Below the pieces are notes generated by a model that did not search any database, had not been told where the DNA came from, and was given only the letters and a program-made list of their open reading frames with translations. 64,000 nt of DNA from Cyanophora paradoxa CCMP329 (lineage: Eukaryota > Plantae > Glaucophyta). Positions 40,420-64,000 of the stretch are shown here, piece after piece; position 1 is the stretch's first letter, and each line of letters starts with the position of its first letter. The stretch spans positions 75,118 to 139,117 of the forward strand of contig QPMI01000666.1 of NCBI GenBank assembly GCA_004431415.1. Direction: 5' to 3'. The position numbers and the translations under genes were made by a program.

Positions 40420-40439
40420 GTTCAGCAAAGATCGAAAGC

Positions 40440-44113: not shown

Positions 44114-44465
44114 CGCGCGGCACACTAGTACTGCAGCTGTGGCAGATCTAGATCACAGCTGCAGTCGACGTCGACGTCGACGTCAGGCTGCAAGTTAGAT
44201 TTTCTGGGGTACACAGGCCAGAAAATGTTGCAGTTCCACGAACTATAAGCCTTCCTATATACGTGGGCCTTTGTGAAGCGTTGAGCTCTCGAGCTTGCCC
44301 CTTCGCTGTCAATGCATTGTTAACCCTCGGAGGTTGCATGAGTCACGCGTCGCGGAGGTTTGGGTGTTATATTGCGATCAGGTACACGCTGCACTAACAG
44401 GGGGGCTAGCACTAACCGACGCGGGGAGTAACAGCCGGTGTACCCCTCGGGGGGCCTCCCGGCCT

Positions 44466-45244
44466 CTAACGATGCTCAGGCTCTAACTGAATGCTGTACC
44501 CCCCGCTGTTACTGCCCGAACCTTCCGAACTTGCGTAATTCGGCCTCGCCCTGTACCCAGTGGCTGGTGTCGTCCATCCATTCGCGTACCTCCCTCTGAC
44601 GCTTGAGTGACTCACGCTGCTCGGGGGTAGGGGAGGGGGGCCTTCGAGGCGGGTGGGGAAGGGGTACGGTGGCAAAATTCAGCCACTCGGGGGTATGCCG
44701 AATTCGCCGTGAACGATCCTCTGCGGTGTGAAATACCGGTCGCTGCTCACGGCCAAGTGGAAGAACGCGCTCCTGAGCCCGGAGAGGAAGCGTGGTTGCA
44801 TGAATGGCTGCTGGAGGGACTCGTCGCGCCAGGGGGCTACGAAATCAATGATACGCTGCTGTACCTGCGCGGGCAGGGCAAGGATCTGGCTCTTGCGGTT
44901 CGCAAAGGCCGTCCACAGCGCTTGCAGGTCGGCCCAATCGCCGTTCAGATCCCTGCGTTCGCGCCTCAGGTACGATCTCGGGTTCTCTGTCATACCCATC
45001 AAGCCCGCGGCCCTGATCATCTCCCTGTCCGGGAGCTCTCGCTCGTCGTGGAATTCGTCTCTAATCCAGCGCACAAGGTAGAGCACGCGCTCCATGAAGT
45101 TCTCCGCCGGCGAGCCGCCCCTGAGGACGTGCGCCTCCCCTCCAGCACTGCGTTCGCATCCTCCAAGTCCACGTTCCGCTGTCGAATCTCCCCGTCCAGG
45201 TCGCCGTTGTTGTACAGCACGTCGGACTCGCGTGTTCGCGCCAT
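44466..45244 (-). CDS. Viral hypothetical protein, paralog of 45279-45974 (apparent frameshifts)
   Basis: MARTRESDV.../FMERVLYLVRW...ALPAQVQQRII...LSGLRSAF.../Pro-rich tail. Confidence 0.6.
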
Positions 45245-45278
45245 GCTCGCGGCTCGGTGAGAATTTATACCTGTACCC

Positions 45279-45974
45279 CTACTCGCGGTCGGGGTACCTG
45301 TCGCCGGGCATCAGCCTCGCGCGCTTCCGCATCTCCGCCTCCCCGGGTAGCCAGTTCTTCGGGTCGTTGCTCCACTCCTCCCATTCGCGTATGTCCCGTC
45401 TGACGTCACGCGGGGCGGGGCGTTTATCGGTGGGCGGGCGGGGCTGGCAGGGCCTGGCGCGGGGGTTGAGGCCCCTGTTCCACGAGTACTCGGGGTACTC
45501 TTCCCATCCCAGGGGTACCAGATTCATCGGAATTGGCTCAACTTCGAATTGGGGCTTTTTGACGTGATAATCATAGTTTGTGACATACGCCGTCACAGCC
45601 GAGCGCAAGCGCGAGAGGTCGCGCAAATTTACGTCGTCCCATTGCGAGTCCCTTGCCTTCGCGTACCACTCGAGGATTTGCATGCGAATGTGGTCCGGGA
45701 GGGTCGAGAGTATGCTGAGCTTGGAGCCCAGGGCGAACCAGATGCGCTTGAACTCGTCGATAATCCTGCCCTCGTCGTGGCTCCGAACGTAAAGGGCCCC
45801 GCCAGAGTTGTAATGCGTGTCTAGCCACCCTGCCCGGGCCAGCTCTAGCACCGGCCAGGGTTGGCGCTGTCGATTCGGTCGCGAGGCCTGCTCTACCACC
45901 CAGCGTCTAAGGTCCTTGACCTGATCTATGAACTGTGCGATCACGTCCCTGGGCGCTTCCTCTGCATCCGACAT
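45279..45974 (-). CDS. Viral hypothetical protein
   Basis: Intact intronless ORF from MSDAEEAPRD; upstream AATTTCTTG motif. Confidence 0.7.
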   Translation of the reverse strand: MSDAEEAPRDVIAQFIDQVKDLRRWVVEQASRPNRQRQPWPVLELARAGWLDTHYNSGGALYVRSHDEGRIIDEFKRIWFALGSKLSILSTLPDHIRMQILEWYAKARDSQWDDVNLRDLSRLRSAVTAYVTNYDYHVKKPQFEVEPIPMNLVPLGWEEYPEYSWNRGLNPRARPCQPRPPTDKRPAPRDVRRDIREWEEWSNDPKNWLPGEAEMRKRARLMPGDRYPDRE

Positions 45975-46024
45975 TTGCAATTGCACACATCAAGAAATTC
46001 TAAACGCTACTGCGAGGCTACGCT

Positions 46025-46681
46025 ATGCATACCGATACAAATTGCGAGACTTTGCAACAGGGGAGCGCAGCGTGGCACGCGGCGCGCCGTGAAAAACTAA
46101 CTGCATCTAATTTTGCGGCTGCGTGCGGCATAAACCCCTGGAAATCCAGGGCCCGCCTGTGGGCGGAGCTAAGCGGGATAGCGGAGGAAAACAACTTTGA
46201 CAACCCTGCCCTAACCTATGGGCATGACTATGAGCCCCTCGCGGTCTCTCTCTACAAGGCACTGAACGATAACGTGGACATTCAACACACTGGACTGCAC
46301 GAACACAAAGAAATGCCGTTCCTCGCCGGGAGCCCCGACGGACTGATAGGAAATGATAGGATTTTAGAGGTGAAATGCCCTTACAAGGGCGAACTTTACG
46401 ATAGCGTTCCTACCTATTACATGACTCAACTTCAGGGCCTGCTGGACATAACGGGCCGCGAGTGGGCCGAACTTTTTTGCTTCACTCCTCTGTGCGTGCA
46501 AACGTGGTACGTCAGACGGGACGAGAGGTACATCGAGCTCATGCGGCGGTGCTTACATCTATTTTGGATGCACGTGAAGGCTGGAACTCCGCCCGAGCCC
46601 TACAGCGATCGAATGAAGTCAGAGAACCTCAGCGAGGAGCAGGCGGCGCTGCGCGAGTTTAAGTCGTACGCCCTCCTCTAG
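46025..46681 (+). CDS. YqaJ/lambda-type exonuclease
   Basis: QGSAAWHAARREKLTASNF; YGHDYEP; LAGSPDGL; LEVKCPY; YMTQLQG. Confidence 0.95.
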   Translation: MHTDTNCETLQQGSAAWHAARREKLTASNFAAACGINPWKSRARLWAELSGIAEENNFDNPALTYGHDYEPLAVSLYKALNDNVDIQHTGLHEHKEMPFLAGSPDGLIGNDRILEVKCPYKGELYDSVPTYYMTQLQGLLDITGREWAELFCFTPLCVQTWYVRRDERYIELMRRCLHLFWMHVKAGTPPEPYSDRMKSENLSEEQAALREFKSYALL

Positions 46682-47015
46682 TGTCCCGACCCTCTCAGAT
46701 ATTAATTTAAAGATCTGGGAGGGTCGGGACACGTCTCTTGGTCAGACTACTTATGTACGCCCTCCTCTAGTGTCTCGACCCTCTCAGATATTAATTTAAA
46801 GATCTGGGAGGGTCGGGACACGTCTCTTGGTCAGACTACTTATGTACGCCCTCCTCTAGTGTCTCGACCCTCTCAGATATTAATTTAAAGATCTGGGAGG
46901 GTCGGGACACGTCTCTTGGTCAGACTACTTATGTACGCCCTCCCTCCTCTAGTGTCCGGACCTTTCCAATAATCTATAAAGAAAGTAGGGAGGGTCCGGA
47001 CACGTCTCTTGGTCG
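46666..47015. repeat. Tandem array of 89-bp units (3 near-identical plus 1 diverged), each with an AT-looped palindrome; candidate replication origin
   Basis: GTGTCCCGACCCTCTCAGAT-ATTAATTTAAAG-ATCTGGGAGGGTCGGGACAC at 46681, 46770 and 46859 (one left-arm substitution in the last two); variant at 46952. Confidence 0.92.
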
Positions 47016-47298
47016 GACTCACCGTAGCTTGGTGTAGCTCAGGCCCAGGCGGGGAAGGCGAGTCTGCAATGAATCAGACCCCACAGGATTTGGTTGAGCT
47101 GCTCTTTGCAGGGGGGCAGGAAGGCGGCCGCAGAGGGCTAGGGAGACTAGATCTAATTAGTAATCCCACACCGCGCATGTGCAAGCGACAGAGAACGAAG
47201 TGAGTAAATGCAGATCGATGATACGGCAATCATGAGTTGTTCAGAAAAGGTCGGGACACATAGAGAGTGCATGCCCTCACTCTCGTCCGCCCTCGCAA

Positions 47299-47348
47299 TG
47301 TCCCGACCCTCCCAGATCTTTAAATTAATATCTCAAAAGGTCGAGACA
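47299..47348 (-). repeat. Single palindrome unit in reverse orientation, downstream of the helicase
   Basis: Reverse complement of 51216-51265 with one mismatch. Confidence 0.9.
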
Positions 47349-47449
47349 TTCATTGATCATATGCATGACGTCACTTGAATTCGCACGTTCGTATTTACAC
47401 ACTGGCACGCGCATCCCGTTCGCGAAGTCCACACTGTGACATCCGACAA

Positions 47450-50400
47450 TCACACGCGCCTGTGAATGAGAGCATAGCAGTCGGAGAAAACGTTGTAAAC
47501 CTCTGGGAAGCTTGGCGCCATGCCTGCCCTTGCCTGCTTAGCCTGGCGCTCTACTGCGTCGTCGAGCATGTCTTCCTCCCACGTGATGTAGCGTCGCTTT
47601 CGGCTGCCCATTTGCCCTCCGTCCGCGTCGGAGAAAGCGCGTCTCACTCCGAGGTACTTCTCCAGCAGGTACTTGATGACTTGCCAAGACTGCTGCGAGA
47701 GCCGCTTCTTCTCACCGTCCGCTGCATCGAAGCGGGGCGCGCGCTCGTCCAGACTCTGCAGAGCCGCGTACGCCTCCCGACCCTCCGGCGACGCCAGGGC
47801 CGCGTAGGCTTCGTCCGACCACAGAGCACGCCCCGCGAGCTTTCCATACCCCGCCAGCCGAAGAGTTTCTTGAACAGCGCGACGACCTTCGATACCTTGA
47901 GGCGCTCAGCAGTAGGCACGATCTCGGCAACGTCCGCGCCATGCTTCAGCACCAGCGTGACCACGGCAGTGAGCGGGATGGAGTAGAACGAATCCCACAT
48001 CCAGGCGACGTCTCCTTCGGTCAGCTCGCTCGGATCCTTGGCCAGGAACGCGGCGATCGACGTGCGAGCAAGCGAAGCAACCTTCTCGATGTCCAGCTTA
48101 GCGAGAGACTCGCGGGACTGCCTCCAGGCCAGCACCGTGCTCCACAGATCGACGGGCTCCAGCGCGCCCGCCTCCAGCACGCTCCTGATCTCGCGCAGCC
48201 GCTGCTCCTTCTCCTGCTTCGGTCCGCTCGGGTTTTGATCCTCCGTGACTTGCACGTTCATCAGCGCGCAGGTCGACATCAGCCGCAGGCGCGCTGCCAC
48301 TGCGAGGCGCCGAGTGGGCATGCCGGCGCGGCGGCTCCCGCGGTGGCTAGCCTTCAGGTCCAGGTAGCGCTGCATGTCGTCCGAGCTCTCGTCGTCGTCG
48401 CTCTCACGCCAGTGCGCAGCCGCCGCGCCGACCGCAACCGAGGGCGTCCGGTTCTTGCGCACGGCGACGAGCAGGTGCTCCCCGTCGGGCGTGCTGCGTT
48501 TGCGCAGCCTTCTGACTCGAAACAGCAGCTGCACGATGTCGTCCGCCTCCAGCTGCGCGGGCTCCGCCTGGAACACGCCGTAGACCTTGTCAAAGTGCGC
48601 GTCCGAAAAGTCCACGCCTGCCCCGAGCGCGGAAGTTGCGATGAGCACGTCGCAGGCCTTGTACGCGCCCTCCTCAGACACATCGATCGACACGATGCCC
48701 ACAGATCGACGGGCTCCAGCGCGCCCGCCTCCAGCACGCTCCTGATCTCGCGCAGCCGCTGCTCCTTCTCCTGCTTCGGTCCGCTCGGGTTTTGATCCTC
48801 CGTGACTTGCACGTTCATCAGCGCGCAGGTCGACATCAGCCGCAGGCGCGCTGCCACTGCGAGGCGCCGAGTGGGCATGCCGGCGCGGCGGCTCCCGCGG
48901 TGGCTAGCCTTCAGGTCCAGGTAGCGCTGCATGTCGTCCGAGCTCTCGTCGTCGTCGCTCTCACGCCAGTGCGCAGCCGCCGCGCCGACCGCAACCGAGG
49001 GCGTCCGGTTCTTGCGCACGGCGACGAGCAGGTGCTCCCCGTCGGGCGTGCTGCGTTTGCGCAGCCTTCTGACTCGAAACAGCAGCTGCACGATGTCGTC
49101 CGCCTCCAGCTGCGCGGGCTCCGCCTGGAACACGCCGTAGACCTTGTCAAAGTGCGCGTCCGAAAAGTCCACGCCTGCCCCGAGCGCGGAAGTTGCGATG
49201 AGCACGTCGCAGGCCTTGTACGCGCCCTCCTCAGACACATCGATCGACACGATGCGCACTGGGCCCTCGTTCGTGAAGCGCACGCTCTTCTCCTTGGCCT
49301 GCCCAACGATGAGCCCGATCGTGAACGGTGCGCCGCTGCCGTCCTCGGGCCCTGCCTCGAGCTGAGTCACGTACTGAGCGCCGCCCAGGCTGAGCTGCTC
49401 CAGCGCCTGCTTCGCAATCTTCTCCTGCAGCTCGATCGCCTTGGCCGGCGTCTCCGCGATGATCATGGCCCGCGAGCGCCCAGGTCGGCACTGCACCATG
49501 ATGTCCGCCTCGACGTGCGCCGGGCTGTCTGACACGCGCATCTTCCAGTCGCAGGTGCGATGCGAGTTGTACAGGAGCCCCAGGCGCGCCCCGACCTCCT
49601 GCGCCGACTCTGCCAGGTACGCGAGATCGACCGACCGAACGAAGCCGTCCATCGCCACGATGCGCGATGCCTTCATCACGCCGCGCCATAGGCCCACGCA
49701 GCGCGCGTTTCGAGGCACTGACCGCATACCTAGGTGCAGGCCGGTGGGCTCGAGGGTGCCGCTCGAGGTGAGGTGCTTCGTGAGGGAGGAGAGCTCGTCC
49801 AGCACGACCAGTAGCGGCGCCGTCGACCAGCCCTCCCAGTCCTCGAGCACCTTGTGCAGCGAGTCCCATGTGATGACGACGCACCTGCACTCCTCATGGC
49901 GGAAGCCCCACTTGCCATGCGATCCCTTTGAGCTCTCCGGTGGCTTCTTGATGTCCATGTAAAGCACGGCGTCCTTTGACAACTCCGCAGCATCAATGCG
50001 ACGCTTGAGGTCGCGGGAGAAGGCCCGGCGGCAAGTCACGAGGATCACTCGCCAGCCGCCTGCGAGGGCCGGGTCCAGGTACGCATCGATCAGCGCCTGC
50101 GTCTTCCCCGTGTTGAGTCCCGAGCAGATGACGTCGACCTGCGGCTGAGCGGATCTCGGGTTCTGCTCCAGCGCCCCGAATGCGGAGGTAAGGATCTTGC
50201 ACGAGAGGTGGCGTTCATCCACTGCATTGACGCAAGCCTCCAGGCCCGTCGACTCGAGCGCGATCAGGAGGGAGGGGAGGGCAATGTCGAAGGCGACAGG
50301 CTGCGAGGGATCGGTCACATAGCGGGTCTGTGCCACGCTGCCCGACTCCCCTCCGGTCCCCTCCCCTCGAGCTCGACTTCAATACCGTGCGCCTGGATGG

Positions 50401-51125
50401 AGATTCGAGCCGCCGGCGCCCCCGGCTGACTCCCGCCCAGGACGAGGGTGATGGACCCGTCGGGCTCGACTCCAAGGTGCTGAACGCGGCGGGCGTCGTG
50501 CAGGCCAAGGTCCGCGCGCAGCTCTGCCCCCGCCTTCCAGATCTCGTCCCTCACCGCCTTGTTCTTGCGCAGGCGGTCCAGGAGCCGCTCCAAGGCCGGC
50601 AGGCTTGGGCTCGAATCCAGGAGAGCGCCCGGCTCCGGGATGGGCTTAGCGCGGGGCGCCGAGCTTCTGGATGGAGTGGGGAGGAGCTCCGCTCGCGGCC
50701 CGGGCGCCGGCCCCGCAGAACGTAGCCCCCGTGCCATCCACACCGAGCTCCAGGCCGCTCGAGCTCCCAAAGAACCATGCCATGAGATCGCAAGCCTCCG
50801 GGCTCTGTAGGACGTAGGCAGCCTTGAATCCATTATCCAAGGGGCGAGAGAAAGTGAAGCCTCCGAACTTGGTTGCAAAGGCGCAGGCTGCCGCGGTGCT
50901 CGTCTCATCCTCGGCACCCGAGAAGTGGCTGGGGGTGATGCAGGGCGGGTGGAAGACGCAGAAAGCCGTCCCCAGGGTCGGGCTGCAGGCCTTCTGGACT
51001 TCGACGAGAGGGAATCGAACGAAAAAGCTGCACTCCTGCTCGCTCAGATCTATCTGCTGTACCCCGGGCCCGGGCATACGGGCCAGGAAGGCGTCGACGT
51101 CGAGAGACACGCGTCCGGTTGCCAT
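47450..51125 (-). CDS. Herpesvirus UL9-like replication origin-binding SF2 helicase; interrupted by frameshifts and a 557-bp duplication
   Basis: SGLNTGKT (I), VILVTCRRAF (Ia), VVITWDSLHKV (Ib), VVLDELSSL (II), VAMDG (III), IATSALGAGVDF (V), QLLFRVRRL (VI); the N-terminal ~270 aa are unassigned. Confidence 0.85.
48142..49255. repeat. 557-bp tandem duplication inside the helicase (48142-48698 / 48699-49255)
   Basis: Both copies start CCACAGATCGACGGGCTCC and end GACACGATGC; the ORF track shows duplicated peptides. Confidence 0.95.
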
Positions 51126-51215
51126 GGTCGTCTCTCTATAGCTAGGCTTGGAAAATTCTAGATCTACTAGGCTAGTCAACGTCTGTTGGCTAGCTATAGT
51201 CGACGTCTGGACTGC

Positions 51216-51265
51216 TGTCTCGACCTTCTGAGATATTAATTTAAAGATCTGGGAGGGTCGGGACA
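51216..51265 (+). repeat. Single palindrome unit upstream of the helicase
   Basis: TGTCTCGACCTTCTGAGATATTAATTTAAAGATCTGGGAGGGTCGGGACA. Confidence 0.9.
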
Positions 51266-52231
51266 GGCTTTGGTCCGACCTTAAGCGCTCAACTAGACCC
51301 GGTTGACACCGTCTTGATCTCTCCTTCTTGGCGCAGCGGACGATGTGACGCGCAGACCGTCGGCCCGGCGGACGGGGAGGCGCGCGCGTAGAACTTCGGA
51401 AGCGCTAGCCCCTTGCTTGACCGAAGCTTAGAAAGTTTTGAGCGCACGCGAATGCGACACGTGTAGAGAGAAGGCAGAGCGCGCCGGAGCTAGCTTGCGC
51501 GGCCGAGCGCTCGACCGCCTTTGCTCCTAAGCTCAGAAAGTTTTGGGCTCACGCGGTTGCTCCACGTGTTTCGACTCAAAACACAGTACCCCAACCCGAA
51601 AAAAAGCGCCCGGGCAGCGCATCTCGCAGCGCCCGGGCCCAGCGCTCCTTGCAGCACTTGCCAGAGGCACTAGCTTGCATTCCGCTCAGCCCGGAGAGCC
51701 GCCGCCTCGCTCCTTTCGATTCGGAGGTGCGCCTCACTTCGCAACCTCTTTCTCCGCACCACGGCTAGCTCCGGACCTCAGATTTTGGGCGCTGGAAAGC
51801 TCTCTCGACGCCGCACTCACGCCGCCACGCGCAGGGTCGCTCGCGCCGGCCGCGGACCTTCGAAAGCTCGATGGCGCCCGAGCCGGAGCACTCCGCCGCA
51901 TCCCGCAGGTGCCAGCTCGCTCTCTTGCCGCTCTATCCCTTGCATTTAGCACCTAGAACATGCCCCGCAACCTCGCGCTCGATTCGCCCGCGTCCGCTGA
52001 CATTTGGTCTCTGAGCAGGTGCCGAGATTGGCCGCCGCGCCTTCCGCAACTCGAGCCGACGTTCGCGGCGACTTGCGCACGCTTCTAGATCTCGTTCTCA
52101 AGCCCGCGCATCGATTCGGCGGCTCCGGCTCGCCTCCCCGCGCCTCCAGCCCCGCGCCCCACACCCGTTCTTGTCCTAGCTAAGCCCTCCCTTGTCCGCG
52201 GCCAGTCGCGGGCTACGCGCATCGCGGATAG

Positions 52232-53565
52232 CATCAGTGGAGCTACGTTTCAGCGCTGGACGCAGGCCCGCCCGCCCAATCCCTCCCACCTCCCGCTCGC
52301 AGCACGCTCACTGGGCCGCAGGCAGCTTCGCGGGGAGCCGCTGGATTCGAAGCCGCGCACCTTCCCCGCCCGTCCCGACGTCGTACGCGCTAACGTCGCC
52401 CGCGCCGCAGGTGGCCGCCAGGCCTCCTGCATCCAGGCCTTCGAGCCGGTGTGGCTGCGGGAGAAGCGCCTCGCCTTCTGGCAGGAGACGGCCTCCTGCC
52501 CCCTCACCCGCTTCATCATCACCCACTGCGTCGTCGACCCCACCACCTTCCTCGTCGGCTCGGAGACGGAGGGCTGGATGACGAGCGTCGCGGGCATCGT
52601 CGAGTACATCGCGCGCACGGAGGGCCCGGACACCTCCGCCGCCGTCGGCGCTGACATCGAGAACGGCCGGCTGGACGAGACCCTCGCCGGCTTCGGCTCC
52701 TGGTGCCGCCCCTACTCCTACAAGCTCGGCGGCGTCTGGCAGACCTACATCCGCGGCATCGTCCCCAAGGCCCCGCTCTCCCTCGGCGAGAGCCAGCCGG
52801 CGCTGGAGGCGATCGCGATCCCCGTCGCCCAGTTCAAGGACCCGGCGCCCGACGTCGGGCCCTTCCTCGTCAAGCCCCACACCAAGGGCAAGGGCAAGCG
52901 CACCCGCAACTCGGCGCCGGCCTTCCTCCCGCCCCAGCCCCCCGCCACGGCCCCCCAGCAGCGCCCCGGCCAGCAGCGCATCGACGAGATGCTGCCGCGC
53001 CAGGTCCGGCCCCGCGTACCCCCGCCTTCCCTCCCGTACCCCCCTCCCCCGCCCCCTCCTGATCCAAGGGCAGGGTACCCCGACGAACGGCGGCGCGGGC
53101 CCGAGCGGCTACGGGAGCTCGGCCTCCTCCGCGAGCGCCGACGGCCCCAGCCCCCTCCCCGGCCCCGGCGCCGTCCTCACCGCGATCCAGGGCTTCGGGG
53201 CCCAGCAGGAGGCCGAGCGGCGGGCGCTGGCGGCGCGCCAGGCGCGCGAGGCGGAGGAGCGGCGCCAGGCCCTCTGGGCCCAGCGCCTGCAGGAGGCCAC
53301 CGCCTTCCGCGCCGAGCTGGAGGCGGGCTTCCGCGCGGAGCGGATGAGCGCGGCGGAGGCCGTGGAGAGCTGGCGGGCGTTCGAGGACGGGACCGTGGAG
53401 CTGGCGAAGGGCCTCGGCTACAGCTACCGGCGGGCGCCGGTGCCCACCTCGTACGCAAGGCGGGCGGCGCGCGAGGCCTCGCGGGCAAAGATCGACGCGG
53501 CGGAGGAGCAGGCGGCGCGCGAGGAGGCCGAGGACAACGCGCGCTTCCGGCACCTGCACCACTGA
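52232..53565 (+). CDS. Intron-containing hypothetical protein within the element (coiled-coil C-terminus); 5' end unresolved
   Basis: A GT-AG intron at 53004-53073 joins ...EMLPRQ in frame to GTPTNG...QQEAERRAL...RFRHLHH*; probable GC-AG introns at ~52266-52321 and ~52352-52410. Confidence 0.6.
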
Positions 53566-53613
53566 GGCCCGAGGCGGTATTTTTTCTCAACCCTCCCTCA
53601 ATTCGGTCCCGCG

Positions 53614-53802
53614 ATGGCCTTCGAAGCTTATCCTGCCCACTACTCGCTAGGAGCCCTCGCCGCGACCCTCACCTGGCTCCTCGGCGGCACCCCCACGGCC
53701 TCGGCGGTCATCGGCGTGGGCTTTGGCTACGCCGCCAAGAGCCTCTACGCCCCCGGCTGCGCCTCGCAGGCGGCGGCCGGCATGCGCCCCGCCGGGCGCT
53801 AA
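53614..53802 (+). CDS. Small hydrophobic viral protein
   Basis: 62 aa with two hydrophobic stretches; upstream TTTTTTCTCA motif. Confidence 0.6.
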   Translation: MAFEAYPAHYSLGALAATLTWLLGGTPTASAVIGVGFGYAAKSLYAPGCASQAAAGMRPAGR

Positions 53803-53897
53803 CTTTTCAAAGTTCATTCTCCCCTCCCCCTTTTCCGAGTTCCGAGTCCGTTGGCGTTCCCTTTTAAATTTTCTTCATTCTCGTTACACGTTCGAAG

Positions 53898-54377
53898 ATG
53901 TCGAGCGCGGTAGAGAAGCTGCTGTGCACCGTGTTCAAATCGGATTCGCGATGCAGCAAGATCGGCGAGGCGGCGAGGGCTAAGGGTGGGGCGGCGGCGG
54001 AGGGGCCCAGGGTGAGGGCGGCGGATCCCGCGCCGCCGTCGCTGAAAACGATCAAGGGGGCGGGCAAGGGCAGGAGCGTGGGGGCGCTGCCCCTCGTGGC
54101 GATCGCGCCGGGGCAGAGGGAGGCGGCGCACGCGGCGACGGCGGCGCTGGCCGCGCGGCGCCAGGCGGAGGCCTACCCGTGCCTGGGCCGGGGGCTGCAC
54201 CCGCCGGCCGGCCGCCCCTACGCCGTGAGCGCCTACTTCGACGAGGCCAACCGGCTGAGCTGCCAGGAGCTGTGCGACAACCGCATGCGGCGCGCCGTGG
54301 ACGGGCACCTGCCGCTGCTGGTGGCGCTGGGCGGCTCGCTCCTGATGGTCTGGTACCTGCGCGGCCTGGTCATTTAG
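53898..54377 (+). CDS. Viral protein with C-terminal TM helix
   Basis: LPLLVALGGSLLMVWYL; upstream motif. Confidence 0.65.
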   Translation: MSSAVEKLLCTVFKSDSRCSKIGEAARAKGGAAAEGPRVRAADPAPPSLKTIKGAGKGRSVGALPLVAIAPGQREAAHAATAALAARRQAEAYPCLGRGLHPPAGRPYAVSAYFDEANRLSCQELCDNRMRRAVDGHLPLLVALGGSLLMVWYLRGLVI

Positions 54378-54414
54378 ATAGTTTTTCGAAACCCCGGTTG
54401 GAAGCTAGCCAAGG

Positions 54415-54741
54415 ATGAGCTGGCTCGATGCGCTGCTCACGAAGACCTTCGGCCCCAAGGGCCAGCCGCGCCTGCAGTTCGGCGAGATCAACGCGGCGAT
54501 TGGCGCCACGGTGGAGACGAAGAACCGAGAGAACGTCCTGCGCGGCGACGGAGGCGCGTGGGCCGACATTGCGGCGGGCGCCCTGGGCTCCGCGCTCACC
54601 GCACCGGGCAAGGCGGGCCGCGCGCTGACGGACGGGGCCGAGCGCTTCTGGCACTGGCTCAAGGTGGCCGTTGTCATCGCCGCAGCGGTTGTGGCGGGTC
54701 TCCTGGTGCTCGAGGCTCGCGCGCTATTTTCTAAACGCTAG
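54415..54741 (+). CDS. Viral protein with C-terminal TM helix
   Basis: WLKVAVVIAAAVVAGLLVL; upstream motif. Confidence 0.65.
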   Translation: MSWLDALLTKTFGPKGQPRLQFGEINAAIGATVETKNRENVLRGDGGAWADIAAGALGSALTAPGKAGRALTDGAERFWHWLKVAVVIAAAVVAGLLVLEARALFSKR

Positions 54742-54757
54742 GTAAACCGAGCGAACC

Positions 54758-55130
54758 ATGCGCGGCGGCTCTTCCCCCGTGTTTCCTTCGCTGAGAACCC
54801 GGTGGCGAACGCAGTCGCCCCTACCCCCTGGAGCCCGGAGTGAAGCTGGAGCGTGCGAACGCAGTCTCCGTCAAGAAGGCCAAGCGCACGCTGGCGCTGG
54901 AAGTCCCGGTCGCGGAGGATACGGAGAAGGTTGCATTCAACAAGCGCAAGACGTACAAGGCGATACGCGAGGGACAGCTGCTGCCCACGGACTCGGTTCC
55001 CGGGCTGCCGGGCACCACGGCCGGCGAGCTCCTAGTGCGCAACCTGCGCCTGCAGTACGTCTCCCGCCTCCGCCGCTCCAAGGCCAAGAAGGCGCGCCTG
55101 GACTCGGGCGATAGCAGCTCTAGCTCGTAG
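54758..55130 (+). CDS. Basic viral protein (one apparent frameshift near the 5' end)
   Basis: ATG 54758 follows ATTTTCTAA; main frame KLERANAVSVKKAKR...RRSKAKKAR. Confidence 0.55.
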
Positions 55131-55157
55131 GGCTCTGTACTGTTGTATTCAATGCCT

Positions 55158-56130
55158 TTACCAGTTCCTGTTCCTATCCCAGAGCACGACTCGGGTGAAG
55201 GGCACGGTCATAGCGAACATGAACTCGGCGAACTTGGCAAAGTTCATCAGGGTTCCCAGGCGGGGATCCTCCAGTAGATCGCCTCGCGCAGCGCCTCGTA
55301 GACGCGCATGAGGGAGCGCTCGTTCTCCGTCGCGAAGGCGTCGCCGGGCTCGTCGGGGTCGGGATCCGTGAGCTCGGAGTACTCGTCCGAGCTGCCCGCG
55401 CTCTCGGCACCTGCGGCGGGGTCGGGCGAGGGGTCGGGCATTCTTTGCTGGTAGAAGGGCTAGAAGAGGGACCAGAAAATCACTAGCAATCACGGGCGCC
55501 GGAACTCCATCGAGTCGCCGCGCCAGTACTTGTTGCCGGAGGCGAGCAGCTTCATCGGCTCGCCCGTCGAATCGTGCTTCCAGGCCTCGCCGTCCCAGAG
55601 GGCCGTGCCGCCGTCCTCTAGCTTGAGGCGGTGGCCCGGCTCGAGCCGGTTGCCGTCGAGCATGCGGCCGGCCATGAGCGCCAGGTCCCACTCGGTGAGG
55701 TTGCGCTGCTCTGCGGGGGTGAGGCCGCGCTCGACGCGCTCGGGCTGGCGCGCCTCGCGCTCCATGCGGCTGAGGCCCACCAGGAAGAAGATGGGCAGGG
55801 CAAAGGCCATGAGATCTAGCAGGGCCTCCATTGAGGAGGGACTTAGAAAAGGTTCCGGACCAGGCCCGAGAGCTGCGGGCCCAGGCGCCGGGCGGCGTAG
55901 TAGAGCGCGGCCGCCGCCGCCGCAAGGATCAGCAGGCGCGGCGGGCCGCGCGCCGGCTCCTCCAGCGTCAGGTCCACGGTCTCCGGCCCGCGCGCCGGAG
56001 CCGCCAGGATCTCGGGCTCGGAGCAGAGGGACTTGGGCCCACGGCGGCGGCGCTGCTTGGGCGCCGAGGCGGCGGCGGTGAGAAGGTCCTCAGGCTCCTG
56101 CTTGATACCTGCGCAGTCAGTAAAGTCCAT
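55158..56130 (-). CDS. Cluster of four small viral ORFs (55843-56130, 55490-55831, 55247-55441, 55158-55247), two with TM segments
   Basis: Tightly packed; the three larger ORFs follow the upstream motif; TGATG stop/start overlap at ~55247. Confidence 0.55.
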
Positions 56131-56899
56131 GCTTGCTGGGTACCTTGGAAAATTGTGGGAGGCGTCCGGAGATTGCGAACGTAGGAGGGGGGAGAAATGA
56201 CGCGGACGCAAAAGATTCCGTCATGGGTTTTCCGTCATGGGCTGGAACTTGGACTCGGGACTCGGCCGGGAATTCTCCTGGTAAGTTCGAGACTTGAACT
56301 CGGCGGGGTACCCCCTATGTCCAAATGCCCTAGTGTCCCAGAGTCCTAGTGTCCTAGTGTCCTAGTAGTACTAAGTAGTACTAAGTAGGTGGTATCGATA
56401 TCTAGCTAGCTAGCGCTAGCGCTTGCTTAATTAATTACCTGAAAGGTTGCGGAGGTTGCGGACGCGTCACAATTCCGTCATGGGTTTTCCGTCATGGGCT
56501 GGAACTTGGACTCGGGACTCGGCCGGGAATTCTCCTGGTAAGTTCGAGACTTGAACAAGAACGACGTACCCCTCCTATGACCGTTCTATACTACATTAAA
56601 GTATTCATTGATTGTGAATAACGATAATGTCATAGCAACTTCAGTATGATGTCATAGCAACTTGAAATTACCTTCAAGTCGAATAGAGGGGTACAGAGTC
56701 GGTACGTTAGACTTGACAAAAACACGTGTATTTTTTTACGCCGAGTTTTGCGGCCGAGTCCCGAGTCCAAGTTCCAGCCCATGACGGAAAACCCATGACG
56801 GAATTGTGACGCGTCCGCAACCTCCGCAACCTTTCAGGTAAATGTCAGGTAACTTCAGGTTAATTAATTAAGCAAGCGCTAGCAAGCACTAGCTAGATA

Positions 56900-57328
56900 T
56901 CACAGCTCTACCTTGCCCAAGTTGATGGTATCTAGCAAGGCCTGCTCCTCCAAGTCTGCACCACCACCGCCTCCCAGCGCTAGCGCTAGCTCGATACCGC
57001 CTCCGGCCTTGATCTCCCTTGGCTCCAGCCACCTGAGAGGCTCAGGCCACCTCCTCCTGGTGAAGCCGGTATCGTTGCTCTTGTCCAGCTTGAGGTAGCG
57101 GTAGGGCGCCGGCGCCGGCCAGTCCGGCCTGTGGCCGCTTGCCTCCTTGGCTATGTCCTTGGGCCTACGCGGTCGCAGGTCCGCCTTGGCCTTCGCCCTC
57201 TGCAGGGGGCCCAGCGCCTTGAACTTCGGTGCCTTGGTCGCCGGCAGGGCCTTGGGCTGGGGCTTCTGGGGCTTCTGCATCTTCACCGCCTTGGGCTTCG
57301 GCATCCTTGGCTGCTTCGATTTCGGCAT
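56900..57328 (-). CDS. Lys/Pro/Arg-rich basic protein, candidate DNA-condensing core protein
   Basis: MPKSKQPRMPKPKAVKMQKPQKPQPK...; TTTTCTCA motif upstream. Confidence 0.55.
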   Translation of the reverse strand: MPKSKQPRMPKPKAVKMQKPQKPQPKALPATKAPKFKALGPLQRAKAKADLRPRRPKDIAKEASGHRPDWPAPAPYRYLKLDKSNDTGFTRRRWPEPLRWLEPREIKAGGGIELALALGGGGGADLEEQALLDTINLGKVEL

Positions 57329-57566
57329 ACTTCTTGCTCATAAATGAGAAAAGCGCCTCAAAGTCTGCCTTTATCTCCTCCTTGGACCAGGATGTCATCT
57401 GATCCGGGTCACCTGAGAACGGCGCATCGAACGCCACGTGGAGCGATTTGCAGGCCTGGGCAATCATTGGCTCGGGCCATGCCAGCTCGATCAGCTGAAG
57501 GTAGATGTTGAGGGCCTTGTCGAGCTTGGCGCCCTGGGAGACCAGCTGGGAGATGGCGGGCTCCAT
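57165..57566 (-). CDS. Viral hypothetical protein overlapping the basic ORF
   Basis: MEPAISQLVSQG... preceded by ATTTTCTGA. Confidence 0.5.
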   Translation of the reverse strand: MEPAISQLVSQGAKLDKALNIYLQLIELAWPEPMIAQACKSLHVAFDAPFSGDPDQMTSWSKEEIKADFEALFSFMSKKYAEIEAAKDAEAQGGEDAEAPEAPAQGPAGDQGTEVQGAGPPAEGEGQGGPATA

Positions 57567-57721
57567 GGTGGGTAGACTAGCATCAGAAAATGGCGCCAAG
57601 TTCGAATCTATTTTTTTACCGGGAGAGTTTGGGCCCGAGTCCCAGGTCCAAGTTCCAGCCCATGACGGAAAAACCCATGACGGAATCTTTCGCGTCCGCG
57701 TCACTTCTCCCCCCCCCCTCC

Positions 57722-57795
57722 TCAGGTGAGCGCTCACCTGAACCTCACCTGAACGGCCTCTATAAGCACGCGGCACGCGGCGTTCCCCTCACACT
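57722..57795 (+). promoter_or_regulatory. Pol II-type core promoter: 20-bp palindrome, TATA-like box, initiator-like CACACT
   Basis: TCAGGTGAGCGCTCACCTGA (57722-57741), TATAAG (57761), CACACT (57790); same layout before the next two genes. Confidence 0.6.
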
Positions 57796-57827
57796 CTCAA
57801 TCTCTCTCAACGCAACCAGCAAGCAAC

Positions 57828-58301
57828 ATGGCCCTTGTTGCCCAGTTCTTCGTCGAGGAATACACCGTGCGCGTGATCGGCGAGCCCATTGACCGCGAGG
57901 TGGAAGTTCTCAAGGACGGCAAAGTAGACGACTGCAAGGACTGCCCCGGTAAGATCCTCCTCATGAAGCTCTCCGACGATGGCTTCTCCTTCACCCTGGT
58001 CTCCTGCGCCAAGACCCAAACCGGACAGACGGCCTACATCGTGACCTTCTCCGCGGGGCGCCTGAACTGCACGCATGTTCAAGTACCCGAGTGGGCCTCG
58101 TTCTGCGCGGCGATCTCTCCCTCAGGCCGCTCCCTCGCCTACACATTCTTTGAGGGGTATCAGTGCAACATCTGGGTCTTGCGGAGGCAGATGGGCTCCC
58201 CCCAGATGAAGGTCGATCAGCTGCACCAGCAGTGCGGCTACCCCTTTAGCCTTGACGATAGGATGATTTCCTTTGATCTTGATGGCTCTGTATCCCTCTG
58301 A
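57828..58301 (+). CDS. Viral hypothetical protein
   Basis: 157-aa intronless ORF after a TATA/Inr-like layout. Confidence 0.7.
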   Translation: MALVAQFFVEEYTVRVIGEPIDREVEVLKDGKVDDCKDCPGKILLMKLSDDGFSFTLVSCAKTQTGQTAYIVTFSAGRLNCTHVQVPEWASFCAAISPSGRSLAYTFFEGYQCNIWVLRRQMGSPQMKVDQLHQQCGYPFSLDDRMISFDLDGSVSL

Positions 58302-58408
58302 AATTGAACGCGTGTTTTCTGACTTCGTCTGAAGCTCACCTGACGCGGGGCCTTAAGAGGGGCACGGGGCCTCGGTTCCTCACACTTTAACCGTAAGCCA
58401 ACGAGAGA

Positions 58409-58698
58409 ATGTGCGCCCCAAGTACTTCACCTGCTGCCTGACCTTCGGCATCTTCGAGTACGAGGCCATGGAAGAGGATCTGGACGAGAACGGCGAGATC
58501 TGCTTCAACTACTGCAGGCTGCTGCGCAACATCTCGCTGGAGTGCCGCAAGGGCGACTGCTTCCAGCACATCATGCTCAATCCCGCCAAGAACGAGATCA
58601 CCCTGTACGCCGTCGCCTGCCCCAGCGCCAGATTTAGACTCTCGAATATTCGCGTAGCCGCGATCGAAGCCCTTCCCCTCCCCAGTGAGACGAATTGA
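58409..58698 (+). CDS. Small Cys-rich viral protein (probable 5' frameshift)
   Basis: ATG 58409 is out of frame with the body KYFTCCLTFG...; promoter layout upstream. Confidence 0.55.
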
Positions 58699-58802
58699 AC
58701 ACGTGTTTTACCTGAATCACCCGAGCGCTCAGCTGAAGTCAGGTGGGGCGCCCTTTAAATATTTTCTAGCGCTAGGCTGATCGCACACTAAGCTCAGACA
58801 AC

Positions 58803-59580
58803 ATGGCCACCGTCCGCAACGCCAACGAGATCGACCCCGCCAAGCTCGCCTTCGAGATCGACGCCACCGGCCGCATCAAGGCCAAGTACGACGGCCTGCA
58901 GGGCCTCATGATGTACGCGCCGCCCATGGTCACCATCAACCCCTGCATCAACACAGAGCAAGGCAAGGCGTGGAGCGACGAGAAGAAGGCCTTCGTCATG
59001 GAAGAAAACGGCGGATTCTACACGCTGGACCTCACCGATCTCAGCGCCGTCGACGGCCAGACGAACCCCGCCGCGGACGAGTTCCTCAAGCTGCTCGAGG
59101 CCCTGGACGCGAAATTCTGCGAGTTCGTGCAGCAGAACCAGGCCAAGCTCAAGGTCTCGCCCGGCCGCTCCTCTCCAAGGACCAGATCTCGGTGCTGCAG
59201 ACCCCCAGCGTGCGCATCAAGGTCGACAAGGAGTCGGGCCAGGCTTCTACAAGTACCTCAACATGCGCATCCGCACCCAGACGATGGCGGGCAAGCGCAA
59301 GACCATCCCGTCGTCGACATGTCCAACTACCTCATCACCGAGCGCGCCACCATCGGCACCGGCGACCTGGTGGCCGCCCTCGTCAAAATCGACACCGCCT
59401 ACGCCATCCCCGAGGGCAAGTTCGGCCTCAAGTGGTCCTTCCTCGCCGTGCAGCAGTGCAAGGTCGGCGCCTTTCGCTTCGCCGGCGCGCCCCCGAGCTG
59501 GCCTTCAAGCCTACGACAACGAGGCCGATTTCGAGCCCTACCTAAACCCCGAGTCTATGTACGCAGCCCCCATGCAGTAG
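58803..59580 (+). CDS. NCLDV-type (DUF2738/T7 gp2.5-like) single-stranded DNA-binding protein, frameshifted
   Basis: YAPPMV...YTLDL...FLKLLEALD..F; IGTGDLVAALVKID....GKFGLKWSFLAVQ; acidic/aromatic tail. Confidence 0.7.
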
Positions 59581-59633
59581 CTCGGACGAATAAATTGTGA
59601 ATTTTTGGTGCAATTGATTACAAGCTTTTACAC

Positions 59634-60436
59634 TCAAAGGCCGTTGAACTTGCCGCCCACCGCCTTGGGCTCCGCCGCCGTCGAGGCCGCCGCCTCCGTC
59701 ACCTCCTTCATCACCTCCGGGTTCGCGTTCGCCGCGTGCACCGCCAGCACCGTCTGCACCAGGGCCATCCCCAGGCGCGCCTCGGGCCCCAGGGTCACGT
59801 AGCGCGAGTACTTAATCACCAGCTCCTCTAAGATCGGCTGCACCTGGTCCATCGAAGAGAGCGTCGCCTGCCCGAGCCCGTCGAGCTTCAGGCCGATCGG
59901 ATCGTACGCCTTGTTCAGGTGCTCCAGCGAGTGCATGCCCGCGATCAGAAAGAGGCGCGCCGCCTCCAGCGAACCCCGCGTGCTCAGCTCGCGCTGAATC
60001 TCCTCGTACTCTTCCTTCAGCTCGTCCAGCGGCGTCGCCAGGCTCAGCTTCTTCGTGGACGTAAGCTCGCCCCGAACGAGCGCCTGTACTGCGCGATCTG
60101 CCGCAGAACCTGCTTCTTCTCGTCCACGTCCACCTGCGCCTCGTCGCGCGGCCTCTCCTGCAGGTCGATCCCCAGCGCCTTCTTCACGCTCTGCTCCTTC
60201 TTCTTCGTCATTTCGATGTGCTCCTGCACGCTGAAGCTCGCCCCCTTGCTCGGCGCCGTCGGCGGCACCGTGGGCCCGTCGCCCGGCAGCGCCGTCTTGT
60301 CGGCCTTCGGCGCCTTCTCGCCCTTTTCCTTGCCCTCCTTCGCGGGGCGGCCCTTCTTCCGGGGCTGCGGGATTCCCACGGGGTTCGGCCCGTCCACGGC
60401 CAGCGCCTCGAAGCCAAGCATCGCCGAGGGGTCCAT
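59634..60436 (-). CDS. DUF5767-like conserved NCLDV protein (one frameshift ~60060)
   Basis: LDELKEEYEEI...LIAGMHSLEHLNKAYDPIGLKLDGL...ILEELVIKY...GPEARLGMALV...VHAAN. Confidence 0.65.
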
Positions 60437-60465
60437 CCTTTACGCCTGCCCCTTAGAAATATTTT

Positions 60466-60793
60466 TCACTCCGAGGTCAGCTCGACGAAGAGCTCGATGT
60501 AAAGCCAGAGCTTTTCGCGCAGCTCGGGCCCGCTGCCGTAGAATAGCGAGCGCACGGCCGAGGCGTACTCCTGCGGCAGCCTCTCGAAAACCGAGTCGTC
60601 CTTCGCCTTGATCAATTCCGCCTCCGCGTTGATGTGCCTCCTGAACAGAACGATGACCGCCGTGGCCCTATGCCGCGCAGCGACTGGATCTGCGCCCGCA
60701 CCCCGGGCTCCTTGGCCTCCGGCTCCAGCAGGTCGAGGAAGCGGCCCAGCGCGCCTCGATCTGCTCGCCCAGCGTCGCCTCCGTCGCAGCCAT
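60466..60793 (-). CDS. Viral hypothetical protein (frameshifted)
   Basis: MAATEATLGEQIE...LFRRHINAEAELIKAKDDSVFE...REKLWLYIELFVEL*; not assembled by the ORF track. Confidence 0.55.
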
Positions 60794-60815
60794 GTGCTCG
60801 CGTGGGCCTCAGAAA

Positions 60816-61934
60816 TTACTGACCGAGTCGGAGCGCCTGGGCTGCTTGGTCGAACATCTCCGCCTTCCGGGCGTTCGTTTCCGCAAGCATGGCAATCTGG
60901 TTGTTCTCCGTGTTCCGGACGATGGACTGGAAGGCTGTCTGAATTGCAGTCTGCGATGCAGCGGACATACCTGCCACCGTTCCTTTAGCGCGGAGCTCTA
61001 GCATGCGTCCTTTCTGGAACGGCGTGGCAAGTTGATTGCCCTGCAGCGCAGGGAGCGGGTTGACGACGCGGGGCAGCAGGTTCTGGTCCGCGTAAGGCAT
61101 GGCCGTCGCAGGGCCGGGCCGCGCGTCCCCGCTGATCGAGGAGCATCGCCCCAAACGGATTGCCCCGGCTGAAGTCCACGTCGTTGCGGCCGTAGGGCTT
61201 GTTGACGGCGCTGCTGATGTTGGCCGTCTGCGCGTTGAACATGGGCGATAGATCGGGGGTGTAGCCCGCGCGCAGCCCCTGGGGGTTCGCCTCCGTCTGC
61301 CCGTAGCGGCCGGCCGGCCGAGCAGGTTCTCCTTCTCGATCTCTTCCATCGTCTTGATCCAGCCGCGCTCGCGCGCCCACTTCATGACGAGATCATCGTA
61401 GTTCATCGGGAAGAAAACCTTCTGGTACTTGTCGAAGCGCTGAATTTCGATATCCTGCTCGATCATGTTCGTAATTCGCTCCAGCAGCTCGGGGTAATAT
61501 TCCTCGAGCATTTTGGCGACGCCCGGCTGCTTCAGGTCGAAGGCCGTCATCGCCCACTGGTCGAAATCGCGAATCATGATTTCCTTCCGCAGGCTGAACG
61601 CGTTCTCCACGTCCTCCTCGTTGATCGTGCGACCGGGGTTCGCGTTCTGCAGCTGCTGTCGGATGCCCATCCGCATCAGCTTCTCCATCGAGGGCGTGTA
61701 CTTCATCGCGGGCAGGGTCTTCGTTTCCCCCCGCTGAGCCCAGGCCCCGCGCCTTGTCCTCGGGCGTGTAGACGTCTGCCTTCGTTCCATCTACGACGGG
61801 CACCTCGGGCATGATCGTGCCGGAAGGAACTTGTTCACGATGCCGTCCATGTCGGCCTTCAGGTCGTTCTTCAGCGCCTGGCGCTGCTTCTTAGAGCCCT
61901 CCCCAATGTCCATCATAGAGTGGCCCTTCGTCAT
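60816..61934 (-). CDS. Probable structural-module protein next to the capsid gene (frameshifted)
   Basis: Core FDQWAMTAFDLKQPGVAKMLEEYYPELLERITNMIEQDIEIQ...DDL..W...G.I, reminiscent of a conserved protein of small NCLDV relatives (from memory, unverified). Confidence 0.55.
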
Positions 61935-62012
61935 CGTGCCTCGGTTAGGATCCCAGTGGGAAAATTTATTGTTCACATCGGCCTACCAAGCACACCCTGG
62001 CTAACAAGCAAT

Positions 62013-63376: not shown

Positions 63377-63569
63377 GGTTTAGGGGTGCGTTGAGAAATT
63401 TTGTGGATGGGCGCCTATGCGTCCACAAACCTCCAAAAATCGATGTCGGGTCCGTCCCCGAGAAATAATCTCGTAGCAGCTGCGCAGGCACGTTGGCAAT
63501 AATCTGCCCGGGCACGCCTTGGCCGTGTGGTACCGGGAAATCGCAATTTCCGCGAAGCTCCCGAGGTCT

Positions 63570-64000
63570 CGTCATTGTTTCCGAAGCGCCTCTGTATGTC
63601 TTTGAGCGCCTTGCTGTAGGCACCCTGGATCTTCGCGCTCTTTGATCCTCAAACCACCTGCGCCGCTCCTCCGCGTCAGGGTTGCCCGCGAGAAACGCCG
63701 AAATCTGAGCTGCATCGGGGCCGACGTCCCATCGCTGTTTGCGGGCGGGAGGGGGCACGCTGGGGGGCGCACTGGGCCTGCGGCGGGTGCCGGCATCACC
63801 TCTCCCGTGGGGCCAATGTCCCACCGGCGCCTGCGTGTGCGCTCGCCGCCTCTCGAGTGCCCGTTTACGTACCTCAAGCGTCGCCTCTGCCTCCATCACG
63901 TCCGCCTGCAGCCGCTCCGTCTGGATGAACTCCGAAACGGTCGCGAGCTCGCTTTCGGGGGCCGCATCGGCCGCCACGTCGGTGATCAGCTGTCTGCGCG
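63570..64000 (-). CDS. 3' part of a further viral ORF entering from the right edge
   Basis: Open helical frame ELATVSEFIQTERLQADVMEAEATLEVRKR; end uncertain. Confidence 0.45.

Follow-up and report, generated by a model that had tools for sequence, protein, structure and literature searches.

In an endogenous DJR-capsid virus of the glaucophyte alga Cyanophora paradoxa, we found six copies of a 50-bp palindrome set around the gene of a UL9-type SF2 helicase, and, judging from sequence comparison and structural models, these palindromes probably constitute the cognate, oriS-like origin of this primase-less initiator. They are likely replication start sites because the helicase core and the predicted C-terminal end of the protein resemble the origin-binding protein (OBP) of herpes simplex virus (HSV). 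The features of the window, that is, the whole 64,000-nucleotide stretch of DNA that was analysed, are collected in Table 1.

Table 1. Positions, strands, and particulars of the features of the element in the window.
Feature	Position	Strand	Particulars
Multi-copy endogenous DJR-capsid virus	44285..64000		left edge ~44285; right edge probably past the window end
YqaJ/lambda-type exonuclease gene	46025..46681	+	PF09588 E 1.8e-28; TIGR03033 above cut-off
GT-AG intron of minus-strand RNA, antisense to YqaJ	46600..47022	-	loose end in run X15; joint in run X18, from another study
89-bp tandem array, palindromes 1-4	46666..47019	+	46682-46731, 46771-46820, 46860-46909, 46953-47002
Lone right half-site of the palindrome	47249..47258	+	overlooked by the first-pass annotation
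Palindrome 5, inverted	47299..47348	-	102 bp past the helicase stop
UL9/CyRepA1-type SF2 helicase, predicted winged-helix C-terminal domain, no AEP primase motif	47450..51125	-	~1040 aa in the dominant form; stop 47450, ATG 51125
557-bp exact tandem duplication in the helicase gene	48142..49255		48142-48698 = 48699-49255
Palindrome 6	51216..51265	+	91 bp upstream of the helicase ATG
Frameshifted ORF, presumably the SSB of the first-pass annotation	58803..59580	+	identity putative
DUF5767 protein	59634..60452	-	PF19071 E 4.1e-13
Major capsid protein, NCLDV type	62013..63389	-	frameshifted in the window

The element is multi-copy: in three DNA runs the host contigs stop at 44284/44285, and contig depth passes from 180, 18.7, and 5.3 before this edge to about 3200, 670, and 224 over the helicase gene, while on the other side the element may extend past the end of the window. 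Its NCLDV-type major capsid protein (EukProt model P0013, 100% identical to the capsid ORF over the matched part, gives PF16903 at E 9.7e-8) places it with the Nucleocytoviricota-like DJR viruses, and Pfam revealed none of the HUH endonuclease, VLTF2/VLTF3, and packaging ATPase genes typical of Mriyaviricetes, whose genomes measure 35-45 kb, in the 19.7 kb of the element seen. The YqaJ exonuclease named earlier is borne out by its PF09588 match, and its stop codon is directly adjacent to palindrome 1. The viral SSB also proposed earlier is unconfirmed, given that the putative ORF, which we take to resemble NCLDV SSBs, has no significant match in Pfam, PHROGs, or Atlas; the Atlas searches with this ORF and with the N-terminal helicase region gave no usable match, which proves neither absence nor novelty. 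Close homologs of the helicase and capsid were found in the gene set of one eukaryote only, with no relatives of either in the viral contigs and none of the helicase in the metagenomes.

The six palindromes with GC-rich arms and AT-rich centres reported in the first-pass annotation are real, though imperfect, with 34-42 of their 50 positions self-complementary, and the coordinates bear out the arrangement it described, with four in tandem and one on each side of the helicase gene. Three of the array copies are 98-100% alike and the fourth only 64%, the centres are 81-94% AT, and the half-site in Table 1 is a possible Box-3-like extra site. A degenerate pattern of the palindrome matched 10 times (five copies on both strands) vs. 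0 in 100 shuffles, and a scan of the 64 kb that was blind to the arm sequence returned six hits at strict settings, all of them known copies, and seven at relaxed settings; under the strict ones, the 44 kb of flanking host DNA contained no such palindrome. Other element copies carry palindrome 6 as tandem repeats with an 86-bp unit, read from a joint leading from 51277 to 51214 with 22 letters between (runs X1, X5, and X11), and variant units there keep left and right arms complementary at 10 of 11 positions, as seen in two separate loose ends. Given that just 2-3% of the contigs over the palindromes continue into unlike sequence (two DNA runs, contigs only), there is no sign of the genome-wide scatter that would have spoken against a tie between palindromes and element.

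The helicase gene of the window is broken by four one-base gaps (47848, 50362, 50710, and 50725) and by the 557-bp duplication, which is either an assembly artefact or confined to this copy, since it is bypassed by one X11 contig and two X15 splice joints and is absent from the helicase sequence P0002. In all four runs, the contigs that dominate are free of the one-base gaps, and contigs of two runs bypass the duplication, so the usual gene is intact, with about 1040 codons, and a pseudogene is rejected because its breaks are missing from the dominant read contigs. The helicase core belongs to the UL9 family: PF02399 matches at E 4.3e-9 (35.5 bits against a cut-off of 20, profile positions 48-161 only), and the CyRepA1 profile NF042913 matches at E 3.6e-16, below its curated cut-off of 200 bits (59.2 for a 560-aa piece from the window and 55.1 for P0007, which together with P0008 and P0011 makes up a 51%-identical subfamily). 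P0002 has no sequence match in the PDB, and for a low-confidence model HSV-1 OBP ranks first in both Foldseek (E 1.9e-6) and VIA-align (Z 15.3). The model of the whole protein reached a pLDDT of 44 and is hardly informative on the C-terminal domain. In a tree of the helicase core, the closest relatives are the giant-virus AEP-helicases, with support of 98/97 and a long branch. The N-terminus carries an additional ~300 aa, which may be a decayed AEP; in residues 1-330 of P0008 and P0011 there is no aromatic/hydrophobic-DxD motif of an AEP and no Pfam or Atlas match.

The C-terminal 258 aa, when folded alone (pLDDT 77, pTM 0.71), give a model with a helix and a beta-hairpin, whose best match among 48,161 chains is the HSV-1 origin-binding domain, 9HGI_A at residues 547-825 (173 aligned, rmsd 4.7, and Z 6.1, middling by the tool's own scale), while the other 49 matches listed align at most 131 residues. 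According to the text available from PMC12543377, the origin-binding domain of UL9 comprises residues 536-851, and the winged-helix domain of the algal protein is thus predicted to share the fold of its HSV-1 counterpart. Foldseek returned nothing for this model at E<=0.001, the profile comparisons of the domain were not significant, and an RVKNL-like motif was found in 0 of 4 homologs. Compared with UL9 and oriS of HSV, the algal locus is alike in its SF2 helicase core, in the predicted fold of its C-terminal domain, in the lack of a primase domain, and in the layout of its site, where an AT-rich centre lies between inverted arms some 49-50 bp apart: from Box 1 to Box 2 the outer span is 49 bp and includes an AT run of 18 bp, as counted on the printed oriS sequence, vs. 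50 bp here. It differs in that its arms are unrelated to the herpes box (none of the GTTCGCAC-type occurs in the palindromes), in the missing RVKNL motif, in the ~300-aa N-terminal region, in the tandem arrays beside the helicase gene, and in its setting in the DJR-capsid endogenous virus of an alga. The proposal of a UL9-type helicase with a cognate AT-centred origin is partly supported, namely by the core, the predicted fold, the span, and 8 of 17 phage and plasmid lineages (see below), but not by the herpes boxes or the RVKNL motif.

In the mechanism that we propose, the C-terminal domains would bind both inverted arms of 10-13 bp, the AT centre of 16-18 bp, about two turns from each arm, would be bent and melted, and unwinding by the helicase would start there. 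Because the helicase has no AEP motif, either the host or a further viral gene must supply priming and synthesis. Tandem amplification on both sides of the gene may have provided several origin units, comparable to the hr arrays of baculoviruses. The hrs are tandem repeats with imperfect palindromic cores, present at more than one site and serving as origins or enhancers, and they resemble the algal palindromes in being repeated in tandem at several sites, but they are dispersed around the genome and bound by IE1 instead of a UL9-type helicase.

An unlikely alternative is that the palindromes are RNA hairpins marking transcript ends by termination or polyadenylation, as in the mimivirus hairpin rule, for YqaJ and the helicase, whose genes converge, and for an antisense RNA. 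Copy 1 directly follows the stop codon of YqaJ, that of the helicase is 102 bp away from copy 5 (267 bp from the wing-tyrosine codon), and folding is strong in copies 1-2 (z of -8.9, -8.2, -5.1, -2.1, and -5.5 in five copies), but palindrome 5 folds weakly on the + strand (z -2.1), the arms are conserved while the centres are not complementary, and no such hairpin is found at the other gene ends in the 19.7 kb of the element. Contig depth falls across palindrome 5 from ~1190 to 210 in X17 and from 614 to 4.7 in X18, and across palindrome 6 from 267 to 23 in X15, whereas DNA depth across palindrome 5 is flat (2402 vs. 2392 and 4007 vs. 4099); this drop fits a role in transcription, with the RNA nature of runs X15, X17, and X18 being a guess, as none of the runs listed is recorded as RNA. 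However, contigs break at repeats, so RNA ends are not visible from them, one RNA crosses the array and then splices it out whole (intron 46600..47022), and the bacterial counterparts sit within coding sequence.

A spliced antisense RNA also spans the helicase gene (GT-AG in 7 of the 7 + strand joints listed), and reading it as a new protein gene is unsupported, its longest frame without a stop having 178 codons within 1223 nt of spliced sequence. This RNA, together with palindrome 6 only 91 bp upstream of the helicase ATG and the hypermethylation of viral regions in C. paradoxa described in the accessible part of PMC12344493, would suit palindromes that are helicase-bound operators or enhancers of this gene and its neighbours, or origin relics in silenced elements, but the AT-rich melting centre and the oriS spacing suit unwinding better than repression, and the dominant form of the gene is intact, making this decidedly unlikely.

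Palindromes 5 and 6 bracket the helicase gene exactly and are 98% complementary to each other, and the size of all six comes close to that of protelomerase sites, as would be expected if they were sites of recombination or resolution for a recombinase or telomere resolvase whose gene lies in another part of the element, or if they were inverted termini of an exchangeable cassette holding the helicase. PLV-like viruses often exchange replication modules, according to the available part of 10.64898/2026.06.19.733378. Nevertheless, this explanation is very improbable, given that no recombinase or resolvase match was found within the window, that the flanks have no evident target duplication, and that the joints listed (15 of 50) include no inversion or excision at copies 5/6. 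Tandem arrays are, moreover, unusual for sites of this kind.

Returning to the palindromes as an origin, the co-occurrence with homologous helicases that the first-pass annotation suggested checking was seen in some of the phage and plasmid lineages but not at five giant-virus loci. An AT-centred inverted repeat spanning 42-56 bp occurs within the final 400 bp of the UL9-like rep gene in the majority of members of 8 out of 17 phage and plasmid lineages, compared with 46/1550 control tiles (3%) and with 3/17, 2/17, and 0/17 lineages for other span classes, with the criteria fixed after the first loci had been inspected and the lineages not being independent. Counted per locus, the feature is present in 17 of 87, with 1/20 and 1/42 in two large cyanobacterial clusters. 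An unbiased batch gave 4/72 at strict settings, one phage family 15/15 at relaxed settings, and giant-virus homologs 0/5 near the gene end. Left out before counting were 12 of 84 loci that lacked a closed ORF of full length plus flank, 13 of a set of 15 phage loci that were nearly identical, L135 for its short gene, and L033, which had been found via the pattern itself. The span spectrum of 6-7-bp inverted repeats in 37 representatives is only slightly enriched at 44-52 and 58 bp. The outer arms alone matched 103 metagenome loci in 46 families (four AT-centred, and 43 of the 103 from a single unrelated family of palindromes), and viral contigs contained no match to the arm pattern. Among the 103, only L033/L060, one of the four AT-centred cases, encode a UL9-like protein, with the palindrome inside the UL9/CyRepA1-like gene (PF02399 2.5e-8, NF042913 7e-53) and a 13-bp arm in common with palindrome copy 1, which may be chance, because L033 is no close relative; its profile comparison with the helicase was not significant.

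UL9-like helicases have been described in giant viruses, mriyaviruses, and bacterial plasmids; in the available portions of the literature they figure as primase-helicases, and no cognate site is given for them. The AEP-UL9 helicases of Nucleocytoviricota and mriyaviruses (ASFV pF1055L, mimivirus R8, mriyavirus SF2_hel, and SmDNAV) are the nearest in the core tree and share the DJR-capsid setting with YqaJ, but they have an intact AEP primase, whereas the algal N-terminal 330 aa lack the DxD motif, and none of the five giant-virus homologs has a nearby palindrome, nor do the accessible parts of their descriptions mention a cognate origin. The CyRepA1 plasmid Rep and the RepA of linear plasmid-prophages (VP58.5, HY01; NF042913, phrog_4913) are homologous helicases, their family profile matching HSV OBP at E 3e-24, and resemble the algal locus in the AT-centred palindromes at the gene 3' end in the 8 lineages above, but they are bacterial, carry a primase domain, and have a single palindrome within the coding region. 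Older work reportedly mapped origins inside repA of N15 and PY54. Our literature search, with most subscription papers outside its coverage, found no report of such palindromes beyond herpesviruses.

In summary, we tentatively suggest, with somewhat less than even confidence, that the oriS/OBP module is an ancient portable replicon and not a herpes invention, consisting of a UL9-type winged-helix helicase and an AT-centred palindrome of 46-53 bp situated at the 3' end of its gene, either inside it or shortly beyond, and common to bacterial plasmids, linear plasmid-prophages, and an undescribed glaucophyte family of endogenous DJR viruses. The locus brings to light an intact, multi-copy viral family; with its 50-bp site defined and its 258-aa domain foldable, binding can be tested directly, and candidate origins are indicated in cyanobacterial plasmids used as vectors. 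If true, such a portable replicon would locate the unmapped origins of many CyRepA1/RepA replicons, and the palindromes of C. paradoxa would for the first time pair a UL9-like protein of a DJR-capsid virus with its cognate origin.

All six of the 50-bp palindromes that the first-pass annotation had described around the helicase gene are present where it placed them, and they are imperfect, with 34–42 of 50 positions self-complementary, the arms pairing and the centres mostly unpaired. A sequence-blind scan of the 64 kb (10/11 outer bases paired, a span of 40–60 bp, and an AT-rich centre) returned exactly these six, and a pattern search gave 10 strand matches vs. 0 in 100 shuffles; there is also an additional half-site. 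A tandem repeat of copy 6 is found in other copies of this endogenous DJR-capsid virus as well, and in variant units from those copies the left and right arms, which lie on separate loose ends, are complementary at 10/11 positions. Such units and the copy 6 flanks are among the 23 loose ends listed (8 further ones are unlisted), some of which could not be placed. Because just 2–3% of the contigs of two DNA runs continue into unlike sequence at the array region, this continuity, as contig evidence rather than a genome count, argues against palindromes scattered genome-wide.

Features of the window, with positions in nucleotides
Feature	Position	Description
Palindromes 1–4	46682, 46771, 46860, 46953 (array 46666–47019)	89-bp tandem array starting at the YqaJ stop codon
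Half-site	47249	
Palindrome 5	47299	inverted, 102 bp beyond the helicase stop
Palindrome 6	51216	91 bp upstream of the helicase start
YqaJ gene	46025–46681 (+)	
Helicase gene	47450–51125 (-)	
Antisense RNA	47386–51260 (+)	spliced
Small structural-looking gene	54415–54741	
Second repeat system	56184–57717	48-bp inverted ends, 85-bp direct repeat, 91-bp inverted pair; 10-bp word in eight copies, paired
Host inverted repeat pair	15950–16252, 40122–40424	303 bp, 98%
Host dispersed repeat	8682–8757, 13136–13230, 31274–31368	about 80 bp, three copies

The module is alike to HSV-1 oriS and its origin-binding protein (OBP, or UL9) in geometry and predicted fold. Counted by hand on the oriS sequence available from PMC12543377, the span from the outer edge of Box 1 to that of Box 2 is 49 bp, with an AT run of 18 bp inside, vs. 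the 50-bp span of our palindromes, whose arms are, however, unrelated to the box sequence. When the C-terminal 258 residues of the helicase were modelled alone (pLDDT 77), the best of 48,161 chains was OBP residues 547–825 (Z 6.1, a middling score, rmsd 4.7, 173 aligned), the origin-binding domain comprising residues 536–851 in the available text of PMC12543377; Foldseek did not recover this match to the C-terminal model. HSV-1 OBP was also the rank 1 structural match of a low-confidence model of the whole helicase; more telling is the model of the C-terminal domain, which matches the protein, and the half of that protein, that one would expect. The OBP recognition motif RVKNL is absent from the helicase. 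Since the box sequence and the recognition motif differ, the module would operate like oriS/OBP without being a strict member.

The window's helicase gene contains one-base gaps at four points and a duplication of 557 bp. Since the gaps do not appear in the dominant contigs from four runs, and contigs from two runs bypass the duplication, the gene in its usual form has about 1040 codons. Its core matches PF02399 over the N-terminal motifs and the plasmid Rep profile CyRepA1 under the cut-off. Searching 1.84 billion representatives gave 6 matches at E ≤ 0.001, four of them the helicase's own family and two weak ones resembling AEP-helicase fusions, and a tree built from 31 helicase cores places the protein on a long branch on the giant-virus side (98/97), separate from bacterial proteins. 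UL9-like helicases of giant viruses and mriyaviruses carry an AEP, as far as the accessible text of 10.1101/2024.02.29.582850 and 10.64898/2026.08.29.747986 goes, whereas no AEP motif was found in the window helicase.

Whether such palindromes accompany homologous helicases, a check suggested in the first-pass annotation, was examined across 87 loci with UL9-like rep genes, drawn from plasmids, phages, and genomes, in 17 lineages (60% identity clusters). In 8/17 lineages, most members have an AT-centred inverted repeat of 42–56 bp within the last 400 bp of the gene, vs. 46/1550 control tiles, other span classes giving 3/17, 2/17, and 0/17 lineages; the binomial p of 1e-8 overstates this enrichment because the criteria were adjusted after the earliest matches. 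By locus, the feature occurs in just 17/87, with 1/20 and 1/42 in the two largest cyanobacterial clusters and 4/72 in an unbiased batch at strict settings, and in 0/5 giant-virus homologs, the nearest group. Arms starting with TGTCAC are common to three distant lineages. CyRepA genes are required for replication, and the word "palindrom" appears nowhere in the available text of the same papers (PMC10899382, PMC10079941, PMC9978351). A separate metagenome scan for the outer arms only gave 103 loci in 46 families, with an AT-rich centre in four, one of which (L033/L060; L033 is excluded from the rep set) lies inside a 1175-aa gene with a primase and a UL9/CyRepA1-like part and has a 13-bp arm in common with copy 1; as its helicase is not closely related to ours in the tree and the locus was chosen by eye, this match is a lead only.

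Several other palindromes were observed alongside. In a phage family with a primase-helicase (IMG/VR contigs of 18–32 kb), a conserved 46–50-bp AT-centred palindrome overlaps the last 20–25 primase-helicase codons in 15/15, and a Microcoleus locus has one much like it, though the tree places the Microcoleus protein apart from that family. The rep genes of the Vibrio phages VP58.5 (L113:4682-4733) and HY01 (L114:4959-5010) contain candidate origin palindromes, as do those of plasmids from Pseudanabaena, Nostoc, and Tolypothrix, where they lie about 245 bp (L133/L137) or 230 bp (L130/L134) upstream of the stop. Three metagenome loci (L006, L007, L009) and 40 more, on contigs of 38–46% GC, carry one unrelated family of near-perfect palindromes of 48–52 bp with the same outer word, and a UL9-like gene was not found nearby.

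Up to about base 44,200, the window consists of host DNA from a photosynthetic eukaryote, including genes for ResB/Ccs1, ferredoxin-thioredoxin reductase, and enolase as well as two repeat types that are probably small mobile elements. Host contigs end at 44284–44285. In three DNA runs, contigs cover the helicase at about 18x, 36x, and 42x the depth of the host flank, a ratio not equal to copy number. The element, which probably extends past the right end of the window, has genes for YqaJ, a DUF5767 protein, and a capsid protein of NCLDV type in the part covered; database searches (Pfam, PHROGs, Atlas) did not confirm the identity of the viral SSB named in the first-pass annotation. The helicase and the capsid protein have all their close homologs among EukProt models, in 12 clusters each, with a single naming style that we take to be that of Cyanophora paradoxa; searches of viral contigs for both proteins and of metagenomes for the helicase turned up no relatives. 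One model (P0001) fuses the small structural-looking gene to the helicase, which suggests either a different gene order or a deletion in other element copies, or else a wrong gene prediction. Many ORFs are frameshifted across 44285–64000; since read contigs fill twelve listed one-base gaps in 44285–58500, these gaps resemble errors of long-read assembly, and most of the element may be intact. Reads at the second repeat system show strand-switch and back-joints, and this system might represent a terminal junction, a further cis element, or a small element that has inserted there. Giant-virus-like regions of C. paradoxa are reported to be hypermethylated in the available text of PMC12344493, their genes not being described there.

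In a run that we guess to be RNA, all of the plus-strand joints listed across the helicase (7/7) correspond to GT-AG introns 49–117 nt long, indicating a spliced antisense RNA across the whole gene; no long open frame was found in the part examined, and host silencing or read-in transcription may lie behind this RNA. A minus-strand intron, seen in two studies, takes out the entire palindrome array. The palindromes might instead act as terminators, given a loss of depth across copies 5 and 6 that RNA-like contigs show and DNA contigs do not, but this drop is a weak hint because contigs cannot reveal RNA ends. The most likely reading, which we hold with reasonable though not full confidence, is that the palindromes are the cognate origin of a primase-less UL9-type initiator, in which a winged-helix domain would bind the arms, the AT centre would be melted, and priming would come from another viral gene or from the host.
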